Source of the DNA: a virus
Taxonomy: Duplodnaviria > Caudoviricetes
Length of the DNA stretch: 64,000 nucleotides
IMG/VR virus record: IMGVR_UViG_3300032431_000007
Coordinates: 1,506-65,505 of that record
Strand: one strand, 5' to 3'
The first letter of the stretch is position 1; every line of letters begins with the position of its first letter. A program made the position numbers and the translations under genes. This document shows positions 35,082-64,000 of this stretch, piece by piece. The notes under the pieces were generated by a model, which had not been told where the DNA came from, ran no database searches, and saw only the letters and a program-made list of their open reading frames with translations.

Positions 35082-35351
35082 TTATTCGCCGTGGTACTGC
35101 CACAGCACAGCGTTGCAGTAAGCATGAACGGCACCGATGGTTAAGCCTGTCTTGTGGCTATGATGCAAGTGGACGGGGTTCTTCAAAAACCCCGGCGGAA
35201 ACTTACTCCACACTATCTTTTTGTTTTGCACAGGGGTCTCGTATACACCGATTCCACAGTGACAGCATTTCCCAGCTTGGGAAGCTACATAAGCGTTACG
35301 AACCCTACGCCGCTCTTCCGGAGTTAGACTGTCGTATAAAACGGGTTGCAC
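35082..35351 (-). CDS. endonuclease VII-like / HNH Zn-finger protein
   Basis: QAGKCCHC…VHLHHSHKTG…GAVHAYCN. Confidence 0.75.
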   Translation of the reverse strand: MQPVLYDSLTPEERRRVRNAYVASQAGKCCHCGIGVYETPVQNKKIVWSKFPPGFLKNPVHLHHSHKTGLTIGAVHAYCNAVLWQYHGE

Positions 35352-35378
35352 CTTGTTTCTCCTTGTTGCCCTGTCACT

Positions 35379-35420
35379 ACCTTAACAGCCCTTGCACCCG
35401 GTGTCAAGACGTGCTAGGAT
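35379..35420. promoter_or_regulatory. overlapping divergent sigma70-type promoters
   Basis: (+) TTGCAC-17-TAGGAT at 35392-35420; (-) TTGACA-17-TAAGGT at 35407-35379. Confidence 0.6.
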
Positions 35421-35446
35421 AGGGCAGGCAGCAGGGATAAACCAGA

Positions 35447-35863
35447 ATGACGTTTGGTGCGAAGCAGAAGGGAGCTAACGGCGAACGTGAGCTTGCCGTA
35501 CTTTTGATGGTATGGGCACGAGAGATCGGTGTCGAGTTGGACTTACTGCGCAATCTAGAGCAGGTCCGTTCCGGTGGCCACGACCTAATCGGTCTTCCAG
35601 GGTTGGCCACCGAATGTAAGCGGGTTGAAGGCTTAGCCGTGGCCGAGTGGTGGCGTCAAACCGTCTCACAAGCCGAGCGAGCAGGCGCGCGCCCCTTTCT
35701 ATGCTACAGACAGAACCGTAAGCGGTGGAAATTCGTAACTAAGACATGGGTGTGGCCGGCCTCCGTTTGTGAGATCGTCGTCACAATGGACGAACCAGAA
35801 GCCCGGCTTTGGTTTCACGGCCATTTAATCAACGAAGAACGCAAAAGAATCGAAGGCGGATAA
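35447..35863 (+). CDS. Holliday junction resolvase-like PD-(D/E)xK nuclease
   Basis: KQKGANGERE…GGHDL…ECKR. Confidence 0.8.
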   Translation: MTFGAKQKGANGERELAVLLMVWAREIGVELDLLRNLEQVRSGGHDLIGLPGLATECKRVEGLAVAEWWRQTVSQAERAGARPFLCYRQNRKRWKFVTKTWVWPASVCEIVVTMDEPEARLWFHGHLINEERKRIEGG

Positions 35864-36346
35864 TTCGGCGTTTACAGGCGTTTTACCTATGCTTTCAGTC
35901 ATAATTGACTAGAATCCGGCGATTATGGCCAAAATTCTAAAAACGCTAAATCCAGATATTTGATATTTTGAAATCCAGAGTTTTGAAATGTTTAAGTCAG
36001 GCTTGACTAGAGCCCTGTTTATTCTAGAAGTGAGTTATTTTTGAAAATATAAAATGTTGCAAGAGGCCATGCCGCCCGCGTTTTTCGACACCCCGCCTCA
36101 CAAAATTGCCCCGGCACCCCTGAATTCGTAATTTTATTGCGCGCAGCATTTTTGCAACGGTTCGTGGCCTTTCTGCAACTGTGATCTTTTTGCCGACTCG
36201 AATGATCGGCGGCGTTCGACATATTTGCAACGTGTTCTTTTTGCCACAGTTCGTGGCAATTCAGCAACGCGACAAATATACCACGGTTCGTGGCATATCG
36301 GTAACGTGTTATTTCGGTAACAGTCACCACGTAATTTTCTTGCGTT

Positions 36347-36422
36347 GTTATCTGATAACAAATCTCTGTTATCTGATAACCGTCCGGTGTTATCTGATAA
36401 CCGTCTTCGGTTATCTGATAAC
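36347..36422. repeat. four phased palindromes GTTATC-T-GATAAC with 21-bp period
   Basis: Copies start at 36347, 36368, 36389 and 36410. Confidence 0.95.
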
Positions 36423-36780
36423 CATGCGCTGACGTCATGGCTCCCATGCACGGCACGCCACAGCGTCCAGCGCGTACCTAATCCGTTCTAAAACGTTTTA
36501 GCTATGCGTCCGGCGCCGCTACCGCTGGCAACGCATAGGCGGGTCGCTGACGGGCCGGTTGCCGGGCCGTCACTCGGACCCGTAAAAACCCGACTTGCCA
36601 GTTGCACATTTTTTAGGCAAACGACTCCCAAAAGGCAAACAGATATTTTTGATCTAAACGACAAACTAGATGATTTTGACCTTGTAACCGGGCCGGATAA
36701 GTTTACTTAGGATGCATGGGCAGTGCGATAGCTTTGTCCAAAACCCGGCCAAACTGGCCACAACCAAGGATCAAGACAAG

Positions 36781-37443
36781 ATGACACGCAAGACAACCAA
36801 TCCCGCCGACACGCTGGCCACGCTGGCCGATGACACGCTGGCCACGCTGGCCACAATGGCGACCGATCCGGCAACCGATCTGGCAACCGATGACGTGACC
36901 GATCCGGTGGCCGATGACGTGACCGGCGACGATGACGTGACCGGCGACGATGCAACCGGCGACGATGCAACCGATCCGGTGGCCGATGACGTGCTGCCGA
37001 TTATCCCGCCCGTACCGCAAGACTTGACCGATACAGTCGCGGTCAAGGCATACATCGCGGCAGTCAAGGCACGGGCCGATATGGTCAAGGCGATTGCCAA
37101 ACGTGACCGGGACAATGCGGCAGCGCTGGCCAAGCTTGCCCAGCAAGCCCGGCGTGACGCTGGCCGGGGCAATGGCTTGCTTGCTGCACTGGCCAAGGCG
37201 CAAGCTGCCGATGCAAAAGTGCAAGCCGATGCAACCGCCCTGCGCGATGCAATCCCGGTCTTTGCCGGGCTGTTTGACGCTGCCGGTGGCAATCTGCCGC
37301 GCGGTACTTGCAAGGCGTTGCGGATCGTTGCGCATGATTTTGTCGCGCTGGGCTTGTCGCGCGGTCTGTTTGTCAAAGCTGCCGCGATGTCGGGGATTGA
37401 TACGACGACTGCCGGTTGCCAATGGGCAGCATCCGGCGTCTGA
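36781..37443 (+). CDS. early protein with Asp/Thr repeat N-terminus, Ala-rich helix and SGIxxxTxxxQW C-terminal domain; contains no Glu
   Basis: AAGGA RBS; DDVTG/ATDP repeats; C-terminus similar to 60006-60680. Confidence 0.75.
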   Translation: MTRKTTNPADTLATLADDTLATLATMATDPATDLATDDVTDPVADDVTGDDDVTGDDATGDDATDPVADDVLPIIPPVPQDLTDTVAVKAYIAAVKARADMVKAIAKRDRDNAAALAKLAQQARRDAGRGNGLLAALAKAQAADAKVQADATALRDAIPVFAGLFDAAGGNLPRGTCKALRIVAHDFVALGLSRGLFVKAAAMSGIDTTTAGCQWAASGV

Positions 37444-37453
37444 TTGCAGGTAG

Positions 37454-37477
37454 CAGGCTGGCCGATAGGCCAGCCTG
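37454..37477 (+). terminator. intergenic stem-loop
   Basis: CAGGCTGGCC-GATA-GGCCAGCCTG; no U-tract. Confidence 0.5.
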
Positions 37478-37510
37478 TCAACGTGCAATCCCGCGCGCCA
37501 AGGATATACA

Positions 37511-37825
37511 ATGCCTGATCCCCTACTGTTTGCGTTTAACACGATTGATCCCGCAACCGTTGCAAGTAGGATTGCAGATCGGTTTAGCGCTGATCCAAAT
37601 GGCAATTGCGACTGCGCGCAATTGGTGCGCCGCATGGTAACGGATCATTTGTTTGACGATGATGTAAACTGCAATCTGCATTTGTCAGACAATGGCGCCG
37701 CATTGTATCGCCAAACGTTTTTGACGTTTGACGATATCAAAGATTATTTGGTCAATACATATCGGCCAGATATGGGCAATGCCGATATCGCCGGGCCGGT
37801 TATGGTTGCGGTATTGTGCGTCTGA
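37511..37825 (+). CDS. early hypothetical protein, contains no Glu
   Basis: AAGGA RBS; 104 aa, Asp-rich. Confidence 0.7.
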   Translation: MPDPLLFAFNTIDPATVASRIADRFSADPNGNCDCAQLVRRMVTDHLFDDDVNCNLHLSDNGAALYRQTFLTFDDIKDYLVNTYRPDMGNADIAGPVMVAVLCV

Positions 37826-37849
37826 TTGCATCCCCTTGTCAGACTATCC

Positions 37850-37872
37850 AAGGCGCACCAATGGTGCGCCTT
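37850..37872 (+). terminator. stem-loop closing the GAR-free cassette
   Basis: AAGGCGCACC-AAT-GGTGCGCCTT. Confidence 0.5.
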
Positions 37873-37883
37873 AAGTCGTTTGG

Positions 37884-38264
37884 GCTGGCCGGTTGCCGCT
37901 GGCCGGTTGCCGGTTGTTCTGGCCGGTTGCTGGCCGGTTGCCGGTGGCCGGGCTGGATCGGTGGCCGGTGGCCGGTTGCTGGCCGGGCTTGCCGGTTGCT
38001 GGGCTTGCTGGCCGGATCGGATCGGATCGGATCGGATCGTTCGACAGGATTGTCAGACAATCTTGTTCGGCAGGATCGTCAGACGATTGCGTTCGGCACA
38101 ACCGTTCGGCAGGATCGTTCGGCAGGATCGGTGCCGGTTGCCGGGCCGGTGCCGGGCCGGTGCCGGATCGGTTGCCGCTGCCGCTGGCCGGTTGCTGGCC
38201 GGTTGCTGGCCGGGCCGGGCTTGTCCTTGTCCTTGTCCTTGTCCTTGTCCTTGTCCTTGTCCTT
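37884..38264. repeat. simple-repeat tract: many GCCGGT(T/G), (GGATC)5, (CTTGTC)7
   Basis: (GGATC)5 at 38014-38038; (CTTGTC)7 at 38220-38261. Confidence 0.9.
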
Positions 38265-38281
38265 AACAAAAGGTTCGATCA

Positions 38282-38458
38282 ATGCCACAAGTTCCGATAA
38301 CCATCGCGGCCCTGTCCTTGCTCGCTACGCTGGCCACCGTGTCCGGCGCCTTCGACCCGGCCCCGTCCTTCGACTGCCTGTCCTTGTCCTTCGAGTCCTA
38401 TCTGTCCTTGGATAAGTTCGAACGTGACGCCTGCGAAGTTTACCTCGAAACCCGCTAG
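38282..38458 (+). CDS. 58-aa putative exported peptide
   Basis: Not in the ORF track; MPQVPITIAALSLLATLATVSGA signal-like N-terminus; two Cys. Confidence 0.5.
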   Translation: MPQVPITIAALSLLATLATVSGAFDPAPSFDCLSLSFESYLSLDKFERDACEVYLETR

Positions 38459-38485
38459 TCCTAGCGCCAACAAAGGAATACCCTA

Positions 38486-38683
38486 ATGTCCACGAAAATG
38501 TATCGCGCACAGATCGTCGCGCACCACGACTTCGGCAATGTCCGTTACCAGTCGTTCCATCTGTCCTTGGACGGGGCTTGGAACGCCTGCGCGGCAGCGC
38601 TGGCCGAGGCGAAGGCCAAGGAAGAACCCGAATGGCACTATTACCTCGACCAGACCGTAACCCCGATGACATTGGAAGCGTGA
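38486..38683 (+). CDS. early hypothetical protein
   Basis: AAGGA RBS. Confidence 0.6.
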   Translation: MSTKMYRAQIVAHHDFGNVRYQSFHLSLDGAWNACAAALAEAKAKEEPEWHYYLDQTVTPMTLEA

Positions 38684-38684
38684 T

Positions 38685-38873
38685 ATGGAAACCCTGCACC
38701 AAGAACTTGACGGCATGACGACCTACTGGCTGAAAATGCCGCGCGGTCAGAACGAAATAGACTTTTTGAAGCGGATCTGCATGGTCGCTGATCTGACCGA
38801 ACTGACCATCCCGATGATCCAGACGGAAGGCTGGTCCTTGGACATGAAACTAGGCCGGTGCTGCGCCAGATAG
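38685..38873 (+). CDS. early hypothetical protein
   Basis: Coupled to the previous gene. Confidence 0.55.
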   Translation: METLHQELDGMTTYWLKMPRGQNEIDFLKRICMVADLTELTIPMIQTEGWSLDMKLGRCCAR

Positions 38874-59728: not shown

Positions 59729-59920
59729 ATGATCGACCTTAATAAACTTCACCAACGGATCAGTGCGCTTTTAGAGGAGGCACGGTTCGATCATAGCTGC
59801 CTTAACTGTGAATATTTTAATGAGCCAACAGAGTTATGCGAAGCGCATGGCAATGTCCGGCCACCGGCTAGGGTTCTGGTTAGCGGTTGTGCGACCCATT
59901 GCCCAAAGGTGCCTTTTTGA
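59729..59920 (+). CDS. small Cys-rich protein
   Basis: SCLNC…C…RPPA…GC. Confidence 0.65.
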   Translation: MIDLNKLHQRISALLEEARFDHSCLNCEYFNEPTELCEAHGNVRPPARVLVSGCATHCPKVPF

Positions 59921-60005: not shown

Positions 60006-60680
60006 ATGGCCAGACAGAAAGTAAAACAAATGGACAACGAAACCATCGAACCTGAAGCGCCCGTCGAAGCCCCTGCCGCCGTCGAGCCGCACCCTGCTGC
60101 CCTTACCCCGGCCGAGCAAGCTATCGCGATGCTTCGCGAAAAGGCCGCTGCCGCTGCCGCTGATCTTCAGGTGAAGCAGGCCGCTGCCGCTGTCGCCGCT
60201 GCCGCTGCCGCCGAGCGCGCGGCTGTTGCCGCTCAGGACCGTGAAGCCCGCAAGCAGCTCGTCGAAGCCAACAAGGCGTTGAAAGCGGCTGAAGGCGAAG
60301 CGAAAAAGGAAGCGCGTGACGCTGCCAAAGCCGTGGCCGAACTCGACAAGCAGGCCAAGACTGACGAGCGCGCGGCGGCAAAGGCCCTGCGGGAAGCAGA
60401 AAAAGCGGCCAAAGAAGCCAACAAAGTTCAGCGCGCTGACCGGATCAAGCAGAACGGTGTCACGATGCCGGTGGCCACGAGCATCTGCGGGCAGGCGTGG
60501 GCGATCTTTAACGCGGTTTCGGGCGCGTTGCAGTCTCCGGCTCCTTACAACGCTTGCACCGATCTGGCGACTGCCTCGGGGATCAATCCGGCAACGCTGA
60601 AGACGCAGTACGCACTGTGGCGCAAGTTCTACGGCGTCCGCAATGTTGCTGTCGCTTCGGGTGCAATCCCCACTTCGTAA
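60006..60680 (+). CDS. Ala/Lys/Glu coiled-coil protein with C-terminal GINxxTxxTQY domain
   Basis: CGQAWAIF…SGINPATLKTQYALW. Confidence 0.75.
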   Translation: MARQKVKQMDNETIEPEAPVEAPAAVEPHPAALTPAEQAIAMLREKAAAAAADLQVKQAAAAVAAAAAAERAAVAAQDREARKQLVEANKALKAAEGEAKKEARDAAKAVAELDKQAKTDERAAAKALREAEKAAKEANKVQRADRIKQNGVTMPVATSICGQAWAIFNAVSGALQSPAPYNACTDLATASGINPATLKTQYALWRKFYGVRNVAVASGAIPTS

Positions 60681-60777: not shown

Positions 60778-61503
60778 ATGTTGAATACACAACCTATCGC
60801 GAAGCCAGCTTCTGGCGACGGAAGACAGCTTGTCGTCCATTCTATATTCCACACAATCCAAGGTGAGGGGCCGTTCTGCGGCAGACCCGCCGTCTTCGTG
60901 CGCCTGTCGGATTGCAACCTGACTTGTCCACTCTGCGATACGGAATACACTTCCATCCGCATGACAATGACGCCGGTTGAAATCTTCAAGATCATCTCCC
61001 GAACCTTTATACAGGACGGTGGCCTAGTCGTGCTGACTGGCGGCGAGCCGTTCCGACAGCCCGTTGGGATGCTTCTGCGGGCGTTGACCTCGGAGGGGTT
61101 TGCCGTCCAGATCGAGACGAACGGAACGCTGCCCCCGCAAGACTTCATCTACGAGCGCGATCTTATGGGAAGCCCGATGCCGGGGTGCGCTTACATCGTG
61201 TGCAGCCCGAAGACCGGCAAGATAAATCCTGAAACCTTGATGCAGACTTGCGCGCTTAAGTATGTCGCCCGTGCGGATGACCTTGAGGAAGATGACGGGC
61301 TTCCCCGGACGGCGCTCGGACATAGCGCCCATCCCAGACTTGCGCGGCCTCCGTTGTTTTGGCGGCGTCCGGTATACCTCCAGCCTGCCGATGAGCAGGA
61401 CGAGGTTAAGAACCGCGCTAACCGTCTGGCAGTTGCCAAATCCTGTATGCAGTTCGGCTACACGATCCAACTACAGACCCACAAACTCCTAGAACTTGAA
61501 TAA
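60778..61503 (+). CDS. queE: 7-carboxy-7-deazaguanine synthase (radical SAM)
   Basis: TIQGEG, CNLTCPLCDT, TGGEP, ETNG, CSPK, LQTHK. Confidence 0.95.
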   Translation: MLNTQPIAKPASGDGRQLVVHSIFHTIQGEGPFCGRPAVFVRLSDCNLTCPLCDTEYTSIRMTMTPVEIFKIISRTFIQDGGLVVLTGGEPFRQPVGMLLRALTSEGFAVQIETNGTLPPQDFIYERDLMGSPMPGCAYIVCSPKTGKINPETLMQTCALKYVARADDLEEDDGLPRTALGHSAHPRLARPPLFWRRPVYLQPADEQDEVKNRANRLAVAKSCMQFGYTIQLQTHKLLELE

Positions 61504-61515
61504 CGAGGGCAACCA

Positions 61516-62280
61516 ATGGCGGCGAGAAATAATGACGCTTGCGTAGTCGTGCTATCCGGCGGGCAAGACTCGACAACGTGCCTATTCTGGGCAAAAGAAT
61601 TCTACAGCGAGGTCCATGCGGTCACGTTCGACTATGGGCAGCGCCATTCGATCGAGATTGACGCCGCGTTCATCGTCGGTCAAATGGCGGGCGTTGCATC
61701 GCATAAGCTGATAAAGCTCGGTAACATTTTGGAGGGGACAAGCCCGTTGGTTAGCGATGCTCCGCTGGAGCAGTACGCGGATCACCAGTCCCTTCCCGGC
61801 GGTCTTGAAAAGACCTTCGTCCCGATGCGCAATCAGTTGTTCCTTACGGTGGCCGCGAACCGCGCCTACTGTCTTGGAATATCAAATCTGGTGACAGGCG
61901 TCTGCCAAGAAGACAGCGGCGGTTATCCAGATTGTCGGCGGGACTTTATCGAATCGCTGGAAAAGACCAGTCGCATGGGAACATTTACCGGCGAGGACGA
62001 AACACTTCCCTATCTCTACATTATCACGCCGCTGATGTATCTGACAAAAGCCCAAAGCGTTCACATGGCGTTTGCGAACCCAAGGTGCTGGGAGGCGCTG
62101 GCCTATACGCACACCTCCTACGATGGAAAGTATCCGCCGACCGGCCACGATCATGCAACGCTTCTAAGGGCTAAGGGCTTTGAAGAAGCAGGTCGGCCTG
62201 ATCCGCTTGTTCTGCGCGCTTGGCGCCAAGGCGTGATGGACCTCCCGGGAACGGCTAACTATGCGGGGTGCGCGCTTTGA
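61516..62280 (+). CDS. queC: 7-cyano-7-deazaguanine synthase
   Basis: SGGQDSTT, FDYGQRH, VPMRN, YPDCR. Confidence 0.95.
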   Translation: MAARNNDACVVVLSGGQDSTTCLFWAKEFYSEVHAVTFDYGQRHSIEIDAAFIVGQMAGVASHKLIKLGNILEGTSPLVSDAPLEQYADHQSLPGGLEKTFVPMRNQLFLTVAANRAYCLGISNLVTGVCQEDSGGYPDCRRDFIESLEKTSRMGTFTGEDETLPYLYIITPLMYLTKAQSVHMAFANPRCWEALAYTHTSYDGKYPPTGHDHATLLRAKGFEEAGRPDPLVLRAWRQGVMDLPGTANYAGCAL

Positions 62281-62729
62281 CTTATGTTTCCAGCAAGACA
62301 TTCGGCCACGACCTCGGGCTGTCGTGCTGTTTTCGGCAGTGGCGAGCCGATAGTCATTGCCGAATGCTTCACGGCTATGCGCTGGCTATCCATCTTGAGT
62401 TCGAAGCTGACACCCTAGACGACAAGAATTGGGTGGTTGACTTTGGTTCGATGAGAAGCTTAAAGGATATGTTTGGACAGCTTTTCGATCATACACTGAT
62501 CGTTGCGGAAGATGATCCAGACCTCGATACCTTTGTTGATCTTAACGACAAGAACCTTGCAAACGTTGTGTTCGTTGAGAATACAGGGTGCGAAGCGTTT
62601 GCGCGGTTGATCTTTGACATTACAGACGGATGGCTTGAGCAACAAGCTTATACGCCGCGCGTTCGTATGCGAAGCGTAACCGTAAGTGAGCACGGCGCTA
62701 ATAGCGCGACCTATGCAGGATACCCGTGA
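62268..62729 (+). CDS. queD: 6-carboxytetrahydropterin synthase
   Basis: HCRMLHGY, WVVDF, FDH. Confidence 0.9.
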   Translation: MRALTYVSSKTFGHDLGLSCCFRQWRADSHCRMLHGYALAIHLEFEADTLDDKNWVVDFGSMRSLKDMFGQLFDHTLIVAEDDPDLDTFVDLNDKNLANVVFVENTGCEAFARLIFDITDGWLEQQAYTPRVRMRSVTVSEHGANSATYAGYP

Positions 62730-63301
62730 TGCAGAATGACCGCAGGAAAGACCTCGTTACAGAGCTGCTGCATACGTTAGAAACGCAGGTGCATCACACT
62801 GGCCTCCGTGAGGGCTTGCGCGATACGCCGTCCCGCGTTGCTAAAGCTTGGGAGTTCTGGACTTCCGGTTACGACGAAAACGCGGCTGACATTCTCAAGG
62901 TGTTTGAAGATGGAGGAGAAAACTATGACCAAATGGTTATCGTCAAAGATATGCCAGTTTACTCGCACTGTGAGCACCACCTTGCTTCGATATTTGGAAC
63001 CGCAACGGTGGCCTATATCCCCGACGGAAGAATTGTGGGTCTTTCCAAGCTTTCACGGCTGGTCAACTGTCATGCTCGTAGACTCCAGGTCCAAGAAAGA
63101 CTCACCAACGACATCGCAGAAGACCTCTGGACCCACCTAAAGCCCCTCGGTGTCGGCGTGATGCTGAAGTGCCGCCATATGTGTATGGAATCTCGCGGTA
63201 TTCAGCAACAGGGGCACCATACCATCACCAACGCACTGCGCGGCGTCATGCGTTCGGATCGGGACGCCCGCGCCGAGTTTATGGCGGTCGCAAACAGTTA
63301 G
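62726..63301 (+). CDS. folE: GTP cyclohydrolase I
   Basis: TPSRV, CEHH, GLSKL, QVQERLT, HMCM. Confidence 0.96.
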   Translation: MMQNDRRKDLVTELLHTLETQVHHTGLREGLRDTPSRVAKAWEFWTSGYDENAADILKVFEDGGENYDQMVIVKDMPVYSHCEHHLASIFGTATVAYIPDGRIVGLSKLSRLVNCHARRLQVQERLTNDIAEDLWTHLKPLGVGVMLKCRHMCMESRGIQQQGHHTITNALRGVMRSDRDARAEFMAVANS

Positions 63302-63405
63302 CGGCCCGCTGACAGGCGGGGCGGGCAAGGGGTATCTGGCCCGCGCCCGCCCCTGACATCGGGCAAACGACAAGGCCCCTAGGCGGGGCAAACAGGGGCG
63401 CGGGC

Positions 63406-64000
63406 GTGACACTCAAGATTTATATGGCGACAACCTTTTGGTTCGGCCTTGGTAAAGGTCAGCGTGAGTACGGTAAACTCACGGACCCTTATCTAATAGA
63501 GATTGCCGACTCTGTTCCCAATCGGCTTGAGTCTTACCATTATCTTCTTAAAGCTAGAACGCTGCCCGAGTTAAAAGCATCGGGTGAAAAAGTGTTTGTT
63601 GACTCTGGCGCATTTTCGGCTTGGACCTTGGGCGCGGTTATTGATCTTGATGAATACTGCACATTTCTGAAAGATAATGTCGATATAATTCGCTGCGAAG
63701 ATGGGATATACTTGGCCTCCGTCTTGGACGGGATTGGCGATCCGCTTCTGACTTGGCAGAACCAGATAGCTATGGAGCAGCGCGGCGTGAAGCCGCTGCC
63801 TTGCTTCCACTTTGGTGAGGACGAGCGCTACCTTGAGTGGTATATCCAGAACTATAAATACATTACAATCGGCGGCTGCGTAGGGCGCAGTTCCCAAGAC
63901 CTAATGGTTTGGCTCGATCGTATCTGGAGCCGCTACATGATGGATGCGCAGGGCAAAGCTAAACTTAAAGTTCACGGCTTTGGTATTACATCGGTTCCGA
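63406..64000 (+). CDS. dpdA: DpdA-like DNA 7-deazaguanine transglycosylase (runs off the window end)
   Basis: Translated by eye: LESYHY, VFVDSGAFSAW, VLDGIGD, PCFH, IGG, KVHGFG (TGT fold); follows the preQ0 genes. Confidence 0.85.
   Translation, partial: MTLKIYMATTFWFGLGKGQREYGKLTDPYLIEIADSVPNRLESYHYLLKARTLPELKASGEKVFVDSGAFSAWTLGAVIDLDEYCTFLKDNVDIIRCEDGIYLASVLDGIGDPLLTWQNQIAMEQRGVKPLPCFHFGEDERYLEWYIQNYKYITIGGCVGRSSQDLMVWLDRIWSRYMMDAQGKAKLKVHGFGITSVP

Follow-up and report, generated by a model that had tools for sequence, protein, structure and literature searches.

A glutamate-free phage gene in a GAR/YTC-free stretch of DNA and its probable remote domain homology to a gene of the helicase-queE locus

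Phages of the Queuovirinae type carry a conserved gene between a helicase gene and queE (family B below), whose products belong to phrog_11298 and phrog_18634, two protein families of unknown function with gp44 of Escherichia phage Seurat (CPT_Seurat44) as an example. The DpdA proteins of these phages have been assigned short target motifs: DpdA of Pseudomonas phage iggy targets GA (PMC10484667) and DpdA of CAjan targets GA and GGC (PMC10484667; PMC7544227). We analysed a window of 64,000 nucleotides (nt) from a virus of the Caudoviricetes (positions 1,506 to 65,505 of IMG/VR virus record IMGVR_UViG_3300032431_000007, which is 65.5 kb long and estimated to be 94% complete). In this window we compared P0002, a member of family B, with P0001, a gene located 23 kb away in another module and not between the helicase and queE, within a stretch of DNA free of the triplets GAA, GAG, TTC and CTC (GAR/YTC; the island). 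A preliminary description of the window had proposed that P0001 is an Asp-for-Glu paralog of P0002, and both open reading frames (ORFs) were found where it had placed them, at 36781-37443 and 60006-60680. The explanation that we favour, with a probability of roughly 0.6, is that P0001 is a real modular gene and a remote homologue of family B, that it lost its glutamates through a ban acting on the DNA, and that both proteins share a docking domain.

P0002 matched phrog_11298 (E 3.2e-20) and phrog_18634 (E 2.1e-16) and had 55 homologues at E<=1e-3. Among named phages, 147 records matched it, always in the C-terminal domain only and with less than 60% identity, and in IMG/VR we confirmed 122 places encoding family B, of which 80 loci were kept. 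The queE gene was found downstream of family B, on the same strand, in 68 of the 69 viral loci with at least 1.5 kb of downstream sequence (the exception being L083), and a helicase homologue was found upstream in all 71 viral loci with at least 2.5 kb of upstream sequence. Since these phages are related, the counts indicate a conserved gene order and not independent co-occurrence. The same order, with the family-B gene after the helicase and before queE, was present in Seurat, Vibrio 033B and Rhizobium RHEph04, so that the position of P0002 resembles that of Seurat gp44, Vibrio 033B gene0018 and RHEph04 gp62. These results bear out the earlier claim that the gene at 60006 lies directly upstream of queE, and its family is tightly syntenic with the deazaguanine cluster. 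The dpdA gene of this cluster begins at position 63412 and is cut by the end of the record; over residues 1-194 its tblastn identity was 55% to Seurat and 45% to Vibrio 033B. A search with the Pfam family TGT left dpdA undetected in the genomes G000 and G001, but tblastn with annotated phage DpdA does find it. GenBank labels attached to family-B relatives ('transcriptional activator FtrA domain-containing protein', 'plectin 1', 'outer capsid protein') had no Pfam or PHROG support and varied between records, and we did not adopt them.

To define the relatives of the P0001 C-terminal domain (family A), a profile of P0001 residues 72-220 was searched against 1.84 billion representatives. Seven proteins matched at E<=1e-3, namely P0003, five with lengths of 101-146 amino acids (aa) that aligned only with the last ~60 residues of P0001 (E 1.5e-5 to 5.4e-4), and P0061 (2393 aa, five matched stretches), which was left out of family A without examination. 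The rebuilt profile recovered P0003 at E 3.1e-25 together with five new members (E 9.8e-20 to 4.9e-14); P0001 itself was part of the query profile and hence was not listed. The resulting family has 12 invariant columns (F, G, R, C, A, L, R, R, A, G, A, W) and the motif F..F..GG..PRG.CKALR..A..W.G.RK.F...A...G....A..WQ..R. Pfam and PHROG scans of 13 family-A members revealed no shared family, and P0001 had no match in Pfam and none among PHROGs at E<=0.1. Family A was absent from PDB sequences, profile searches of which gave 0 matches for alignment A5 and chance-level matches only for A1; no named phage matched the family-A proteins P0064 and P0067, and the 185,579 GTDB species genomes contained no family-A relative. 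In IMG/VR, scans with alignments A7 and A8 found family A only in one related phage, G001, beside the window's own record. Family A is a small family, annotated in none of the libraries searched and seen only in uncultivated phages and metagenomes.

The relation between the two families was visible when their profiles were compared with hhalign. Fifteen family-A C-terminal domains aligned with 150 unique family-B C-terminal domains (the 36 domains of our first alignment plus domains drawn by the family-B hidden Markov model (HMM) from 84 loci) with a score of 30.9 over 44 columns (E 3.9e-6, hhalign probability 87.2%), joining residues ~173-217 of P0001 to ~157-204 of P0002 at 18-22% identity. 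None of 815 column shuffles reached this score (mean 10.0, standard deviation (SD) 2.3, maximum 21.2), and reversed-profile controls scored 11.5 and 10.2. The 10 family-A proteins outside the P0001 lineage gave the same picture against family B (hhalign probability 88.4%, E 2.8e-6). The register was the one suggested in the preliminary description (LPRGTC... against MPVATSIC...), HMM cross-matches fell in it as well, and within it the conserved G, P, C and G-(L/I)-(N/D) and an aromatic residue coincide between the families. Of the family-B invariants N150, G151, P155, W165, Y202 and W205, family A keeps the G, the P and an aromatic residue at Y202 (W), and it also keeps the near-invariant C161; it is without W165 (R instead) and W205 in the hhalign register. 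The predicted helices agree in length and order (174-189, 194-203 and 214-217 in P0001; 160-175, 181-190 and 195-208 in P0002). The earlier claim of a similar C-terminal domain is therefore supported, at the level of profiles and with enlarged families.

Several observations weigh against this relation. BLASTP of P0001 against P0002 found nothing in the C-terminal domain, its best match (E 0.13) being in the Ala/Lys helix. The P0002 C-terminal HMM gave the P0001 frame 0.1 bit, rank 124 of 1242 six-frame segments (1019 reported), so that pairwise and HMM-to-sequence methods all failed to join the two proteins. A two-sequence P0001 profile against the 36-sequence P0002 profile reached only E 0.77, yet in the expected register, and with 15 family-A against 36 family-B domains E was 0.0023 and 6 of 645 shuffles reached the score, a marginal result. 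The P0001 lineage alone gave E 0.0065 and a hhalign probability of 5.8% against family B, again in the same register. The best-scoring stretch includes a generic helix-turn-helix (HTH) signature, A...G(hydrophobic)..T/N, and the score may be partly convergent. Structure comparison was of no help: Foldseek with the AlphaFold2 (AF2) model of P0001 against BFVD gave nothing at E<=1e-3, with a family-B member at rank 18 (E 3.3), and the Atlas neighbour lists of the family-A and family-B domains had no cluster in common. The BFVD result cannot be read as evidence, however, because the P0001 model is too poor, with a predicted local distance difference test (pLDDT) score of 46 against 86 for the confident model of P0002. 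Of the comparison of C-terminal domains by profile and by structure, the profile part was thus significant and the Foldseek part returned no match.

If the likeness were convergent, P0001 would be an unrelated orphan with no tie to the queE-linked gene, and the two domains would be similar only as small three-helix HTH-like domains with a generic turn. The failed pairwise and HMM-to-sequence tests, the identity of 18-22% over 44 columns, the restriction of the strongest local matches to helix 2, the turn and helix 3, and the silence of the structural search with the P0001 model would all fit such a case. However, the profile-profile score lies about 9 SD above the shuffles, the alignment extends over the entire domain and takes in its G..P...C start, which lies beyond the HTH core, and the signal rises with profile depth, from E 0.77 through 0.0087 (10-sequence family A against 36-sequence family B) and 0.0023 to 3.9e-6. 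In addition, one N-terminal module is common to P0008, where it is joined to a family-B domain, and P0067, where it is joined to a family-A domain (47% identity over 86 aa, E 7e-19); thus the two types of domain replace each other in otherwise homologous proteins. We therefore consider the convergent explanation unlikely, and homology of the family-A and family-B C-terminal domains probable. The low score of the P0001 lineage alone fits with the GAR ban described below, which removed Glu and Lys-Glu from conserved positions.

The shared N-terminal module (M..K.Y..KS.A.RA.KKA...) was seen in P0008, P0058, P0064, P0066 and P0067, with either domain, and it matches no Pfam family.

Judged by these alignments, the relation of P0001 to P0002 would be an old, very diverged homology of one domain, and not that of a recent paralog. 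P0001 was not filed in family B, because it has no direct match to the family-B HMM; its C-terminal domain aligns with phrog_11298/18634 at the profile level only and its N-terminal architecture is different. The term 'Asp-for-Glu paralog' in the preliminary description is not supported for the whole gene, in which only ~45 residues align. Likewise, the acidic N-terminus and the long Ala/Lys helix said to be common to both proteins are alike in composition but not in sequence. With this relation, the orphan P0001 becomes tied to a widespread uncharacterised gene of the helicase/7-deazaguanine cluster, and both gain a shared, testable domain.

The modular build of P0001 was apparent from its sequence and, more weakly, from its model. 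Residues 1-71 consist of Asp/Thr/Ala/Pro tandem repeats with DDVTG-type units (DNA repeat families D1, D9 and D14), whereas in relatives the repeats are of ADAPADAIDVP type and vary in copy number, the proteins ranging from 214 to 240 aa. The helical segment, residues 85-167, is highly conserved across seven sequences. In the AF2 model, built on a seven-sequence alignment, pLDDT was below 50 over residues 1-69 and 46-60 in the helices 85-126 and 133-167. Thus P0001 combines a fast-evolving tail of Asp-rich repeats with a helical middle part that is conserved and with a C-terminal domain, ~55 residues long, for which three helices are predicted. The model of P0002 has a single 110-residue helix (35-144, pLDDT ~90 and above), a small hairpin and three helices. 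Foldseek of this model against PDB returned nothing at E<=0.001, and its significant structural matches in BFVD were limited to its own family of uncharacterised phage proteins. Several BFVD matches to the P0002 domain came from one accession series (A5A3S7, A5A3V4, A5A3S9, A5A3V9; also A0A6M3YN92 and A0A6M3YN91), which hints that some phages carry several copies of the domain.

The relatives of P0001 are few. P0003 (73% identity) was the sole homologue in a collection of 5.8 billion clusters, and six metagenome loci (L004-L009) carry homologues. DNA and protein searches of 50,697 named phage records matched neither P0001 nor the island DNA, and an IMG/VR scan with P0001 as the query found no relative. 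Over the last 150 codons, comparison of the window with the six related loci gave ratios of nonsynonymous to synonymous substitution rates (dN/dS) of 0.07-0.15 at synonymous divergence (dS) of 0.64-1.09, so the frame must be translated and constrained. A longer frame opens at 36712; the conserved Met with a Shine-Dalgarno sequence (AAGGA) is at 36781. One could suppose instead that the ORF is not a gene but an open frame arising from GC-rich repeats in a regulatory or origin region, since the opposite strand also has long open frames (310 and 246 aa), repeats occupy the 5' third of P0001 and homologous loci number only seven. The substitution pattern, with dS up to 1.1, already contradicts this, as do the conserved start codon and Shine-Dalgarno sequence and the distant protein homologues of the C-terminal domain, and we regard the non-gene explanation as negligible. 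Strong purifying selection acts on the ORF at 36781-37443, which is a real gene.

The DNA around P0001 has a second unusual property. GAA, GAG, TTC and CTC are absent over 1292 bp, on both strands and in all frames, non-coding parts included, with 0 sites observed against 79 expected, while every other 3-mer occurs at 0.45 of its expectation or more. The gap corresponds to 77 times the mean GAR/YTC spacing (16.8 bp), and no other trinucleotide has a gap of more than 15 times the spacing at which it occurs. It starts ~155 bp upstream of the P0001 start codon and includes a second gene, ORF2. The motif-free stretch was kept in all six related loci (745-1377 bp, two of these being cut by contig ends), and all P0001 homologues in these loci have no Glu, despite near-saturated synonymous divergence. 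Two of the loci lack ORF2: in L006 the stretch is formed by the P0001 gene with ~150 bp upstream and 57 bp downstream, and in L004, which begins 43 bp before the gene, it likewise stops 57 bp past the gene. Since the stretch shrinks to the P0001 unit in these loci, the ban is a property of that unit. No GAR/YTC-free stretch was found in the related phage G001.

The composition of the proteins follows from this. P0001 has 32 Asp and no Glu, ORF2 has 15 Asp and no Glu, and P0002 has 8 Asp and 18 Glu, in agreement with the earlier remark that the 60006 copy is Glu-rich and the island copy Asp-only, with DDVTG-type repeats. The acidic segments, Asp-only in P0001, are rich in Glu in P0002 and the other members of family A, and where family A has conserved Glu (RKEF, AAEWQ), P0001 has Gly, Leu, Cys or Gln. 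P0001 lacks Glu because GAR/YTC is excluded, in every frame of either strand, from the DNA of the whole transcription unit; its acidic positions are therefore filled by Asp. A translational reason is conceivable, in which tRNA-Glu is depleted or cleaved early in infection and P0001 is a deliberately Asp-substituted copy, and the complete absence of Glu from both Asp-containing island genes would suit it. However, GAR is missing out of frame and from the non-coding parts too, and so is its reverse complement YTC (Phe is encoded by 10 TTT and 0 TTC codons, and none of 29 Leu codons is CTC). A cause at the codon level predicts neither strand symmetry nor independence of the frame, so that the tRNA-Glu explanation is already contradicted and, in our estimate, very improbable. 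The Asp-for-Glu character is a side effect of the ban on GAR/YTC in the DNA, which treats both strands and all frames alike, and not an adaptation of the protein.

Here a ban on a DNA sequence has rewritten a protein, which is without Glu and without TTC and CTC codons and has its conserved Glu positions exchanged. The GAR/YTC ban was strong enough to mask the homology of P0001 from ordinary searches. If it marks a motif recognised by a defence or modification system, the P0001 unit could be expected to report on that system naturally. Erosion by a deaminase (YTC to YTT) was considered as the cause of the island and is unlikely, as AAA/TTT (0.89 of expectation) and AAG/CTT (0.67) show no excess.

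We also asked whether the two families occur together. The 63-kb genome of phage G001 is colinear with the window, with 45-70% protein identity for most conserved genes. It encodes one family-B gene beside queE, a dpdA, and one family-A gene, P0064, a plain 128-aa protein that contains Glu and adjoins a RusA-like gene near the terS (small terminase gene) operon, as does P0001. Family A, family B, queE and dpdA were thus found together in both near-complete genomes with family A, the window's phage and G001. Most family-B and deazaguanine phages are without family A, because IMG/VR holds 122 family-B places (80 kept) and two family-A records. The island had earlier been said to be linked to the modification locus; the link is one of gene order only, and family A is present in just two IMG/VR phages. 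Similarly, co-occurrence with dpdA holds for G001 and the window, but not in the reverse direction, most family-B phages being without an island-type gene.

As to function, P0001 and P0002 could use a shared HTH-like domain for docking on targets of one kind, most likely DNA or, alternatively, a replisome component next to the helicase, with their different N-terminal parts giving them different jobs. The DNA-binding or DNA-mimic role at entry and during modification that the preliminary description suggested is hypothetical. P0001 would probably be an early product of the control region beside the terS operon, which holds the GTTATCTGATAAC palindromes described below, and its polyanionic Asp-rich tail could serve as a flexible spacer or as a nucleic-acid-like decoy. 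The Atlas structural neighbours of both models were small three-helix or winged-helix domains with template modelling (TM) scores of 0.54-0.70, over ~50-60 residues, a length at which TM means little. They include the MCM C-terminal winged-helix domain, the RecX HTH, the RsmI C-terminal domain and HTH_23, whose three short helices are of matching length; for P0002, the neighbours beyond its own family were winged-helix domains such as the MCM C-terminal domain (TM ~0.55). No Pfam HTH family matched the C-terminal domain in the 13 family-A members scanned, nor in P0001 or P0002, and no PDB chain matched P0001 or P0002 by sequence. DNA binding we only infer, because Pfam HTH families and solved structures gave no match to either domain, and early expression we infer from position alone; both points count on the same side as the failed pairwise tests. 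With DNA-mimic anti-restriction proteins (Ocr, ArdA) P0001, of net charge about -11, has only charge in common, as its acidic part is predicted to be disordered and as it had no Pfam or PHROG match pointing to Ocr/ArdA-type homology.

Phage T7, with Ocr, and the leading regions of T7 and T5 provide the example of an acidic, first-expressed protein encoded on DNA without the sites of the defence that it counters. The motif-free unit and the Asp-rich tail of P0001 may be compared with T7 Ocr and these regions by functional analogy; there is no similarity of sequence or fold. By this analogy, P0001 could be an entry-phase anti-defence protein, its unit being injected first and devoid of sites for a defence that reads YTC/GAR, with the Asp-rich tail mimicking nucleic acid and the C-terminal domain targeting it. 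Such a role is compatible with the explanation that we favour, and we think it improbable. In its fuller form, which we would call a long shot, the P0001 (+ORF2) unit would be a leading region to which defences are blind, the first DNA in, purged of every YTC/GAR triplet, these triplets being type I-C protospacer adjacent motifs (PAMs) or the site of another defence or of the phage's own DpdA, and the Asp-only anti-defence P0001 reuses the docking domain of the modification locus before the rest of the genome arrives.

The ban is absolute, strand-symmetric and kept at dS ~1 in all six relatives, and it covers exactly the P0001 (+ORF2) unit with ~155 bp upstream, as expected of such a region. 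The charge of P0001 would fit as well, and terS lies ~2.7 kb to the left of P0001 and reads in the opposite direction, away from it, so that, by analogy with phage lambda, the island side could be the last to be packaged and the first to be injected. For one type I-C CRISPR system, TTC and then CTC are reported as the two best interference PAMs, TTT and TCC being weaker but functional (10.1101/137067). However, TTT (40 against 45 expected) and TCC (24 against 38) are not avoided in the island, and a PAM-free stretch of 1.3 kb leaves the rest of the genome exposed unless entry is stepwise. The sequences available are assembled contigs, which cannot show genome ends (no RNA run was listed as containing the sequence, and one DNA run, in contig form, contained 0.93 of the words); P0001 showed no homology to a known anti-defence protein in Pfam and PHROG scans, and G001 has a family-A gene with Glu and no island.

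The motifs of known DpdA proteins, as given in the reports cited above, offer another comparison: the banned GAA and GAG contain GA, which is modified in relatives, and the window carries dpdA. The island is not free of GA sites in that sense, since GAT and GAC occur at 1.72 and 1.22 times expectation, and because they are not avoided it would be unmodified only if the DpdA of this phage needs GAR. The ban might stem from a defence site or PAM, from the specificity of the modification enzyme that the phage itself encodes, or from another cause.

Table 1. Positions of the genes, protein segments and DNA elements discussed, in window coordinates
Feature	Position	Strand	Details and basis
P0001 gene	36781..37443	+	220 aa, 0 Glu, 32 Asp; ORF and translation, dN/dS, conserved start
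P0001 residues 1-71, Asp-rich variable tandem repeats, predicted disordered	36781..36993	+	DNA repeats, pLDDT
P0001 residues 85-167, two predicted long helices (Ala, Lys, Arg, Asp rich)	37033..37281	+	AF2, low confidence
P0001 residues 173-219, core of family-A C-terminal domain	37297..37437	+	profile search, hhalign against family B
P0002 gene	60006..60680	+	224 aa, family B (phrog_11298 / phrog_18634)
P0002 residues 157-204, part aligning with P0001 C-terminal domain	60474..60617	+	same register in all hhalign runs
Stretch without GAA, GAG, TTC, CTC on either strand	36626..37916	.	0 sites against 79 expected
ORF2, second gene in motif-free stretch	37511..37825	+	104 aa, 0 Glu, 15 Asp; dN/dS 0.14-0.25
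Four exact 13-bp palindromes GTTATCTGATAAC, 21-bp spacing	36347..36422	.	~360-430 bp upstream of P0001
Helicase upstream of P0002	57899..59719	+	Pfam ResIII, Helicase_C, DEAD
Modification cluster downstream of P0002 (queE-like radical SAM, queC, queD, folE, dpdA)	60778..64000	+	Pfam Radical_SAM, QueC, PTPS, GTP_cyclohydroI

The remaining features of the two loci are as follows. The RusA-like gene that adjoins P0001 is at 35447-35863. The GTTATCTGATAAC palindromes occur nowhere else in the window (0.07 expected), and one or two exact copies are present upstream of the P0001 homologues in L005-L009; they look like candidate operator or iteron sites. No operator palindromes were found near the family-A gene of G001, so that the domain could not be tied to the GTTATCTGATAAC sites. 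A promoter and terminator scan of 35300-38700 gave four promoter-like sites where 1.9 are expected, and upstream of P0001 there was no convincing one. ORF2 matches no family in Pfam or PHROGs. Besides the window, L007, L008 and L009 carry it, and its product is free of Glu in L007, L009 and the window.

Between the helicase and P0002 there is a 63-aa Cys-rich ORF (59729-59920) with 42% identity to its counterpart in G001 and no Pfam family. A 38-nt repeat whose core is GGTTCGTGGC is present in three copies at 36142-36305, in non-coding DNA between the RusA-like gene and the palindromes. A GC-rich repeat block (37877-38265) separates ORF2 from the next gene; it contains nine copies of CCGGTTGC on the + strand, repeats of GGATC and of TTCGGCAGGATCG, and a tandem array of roughly 7-8 GTCCTT units at ~38220-38264, and it is wholly missing in L004 and L006. 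The block is also partly reverse-complementary to the repeat-coding 5' third of P0001, with arms at 36869-36885 and 38161-38177 that match at 94%.

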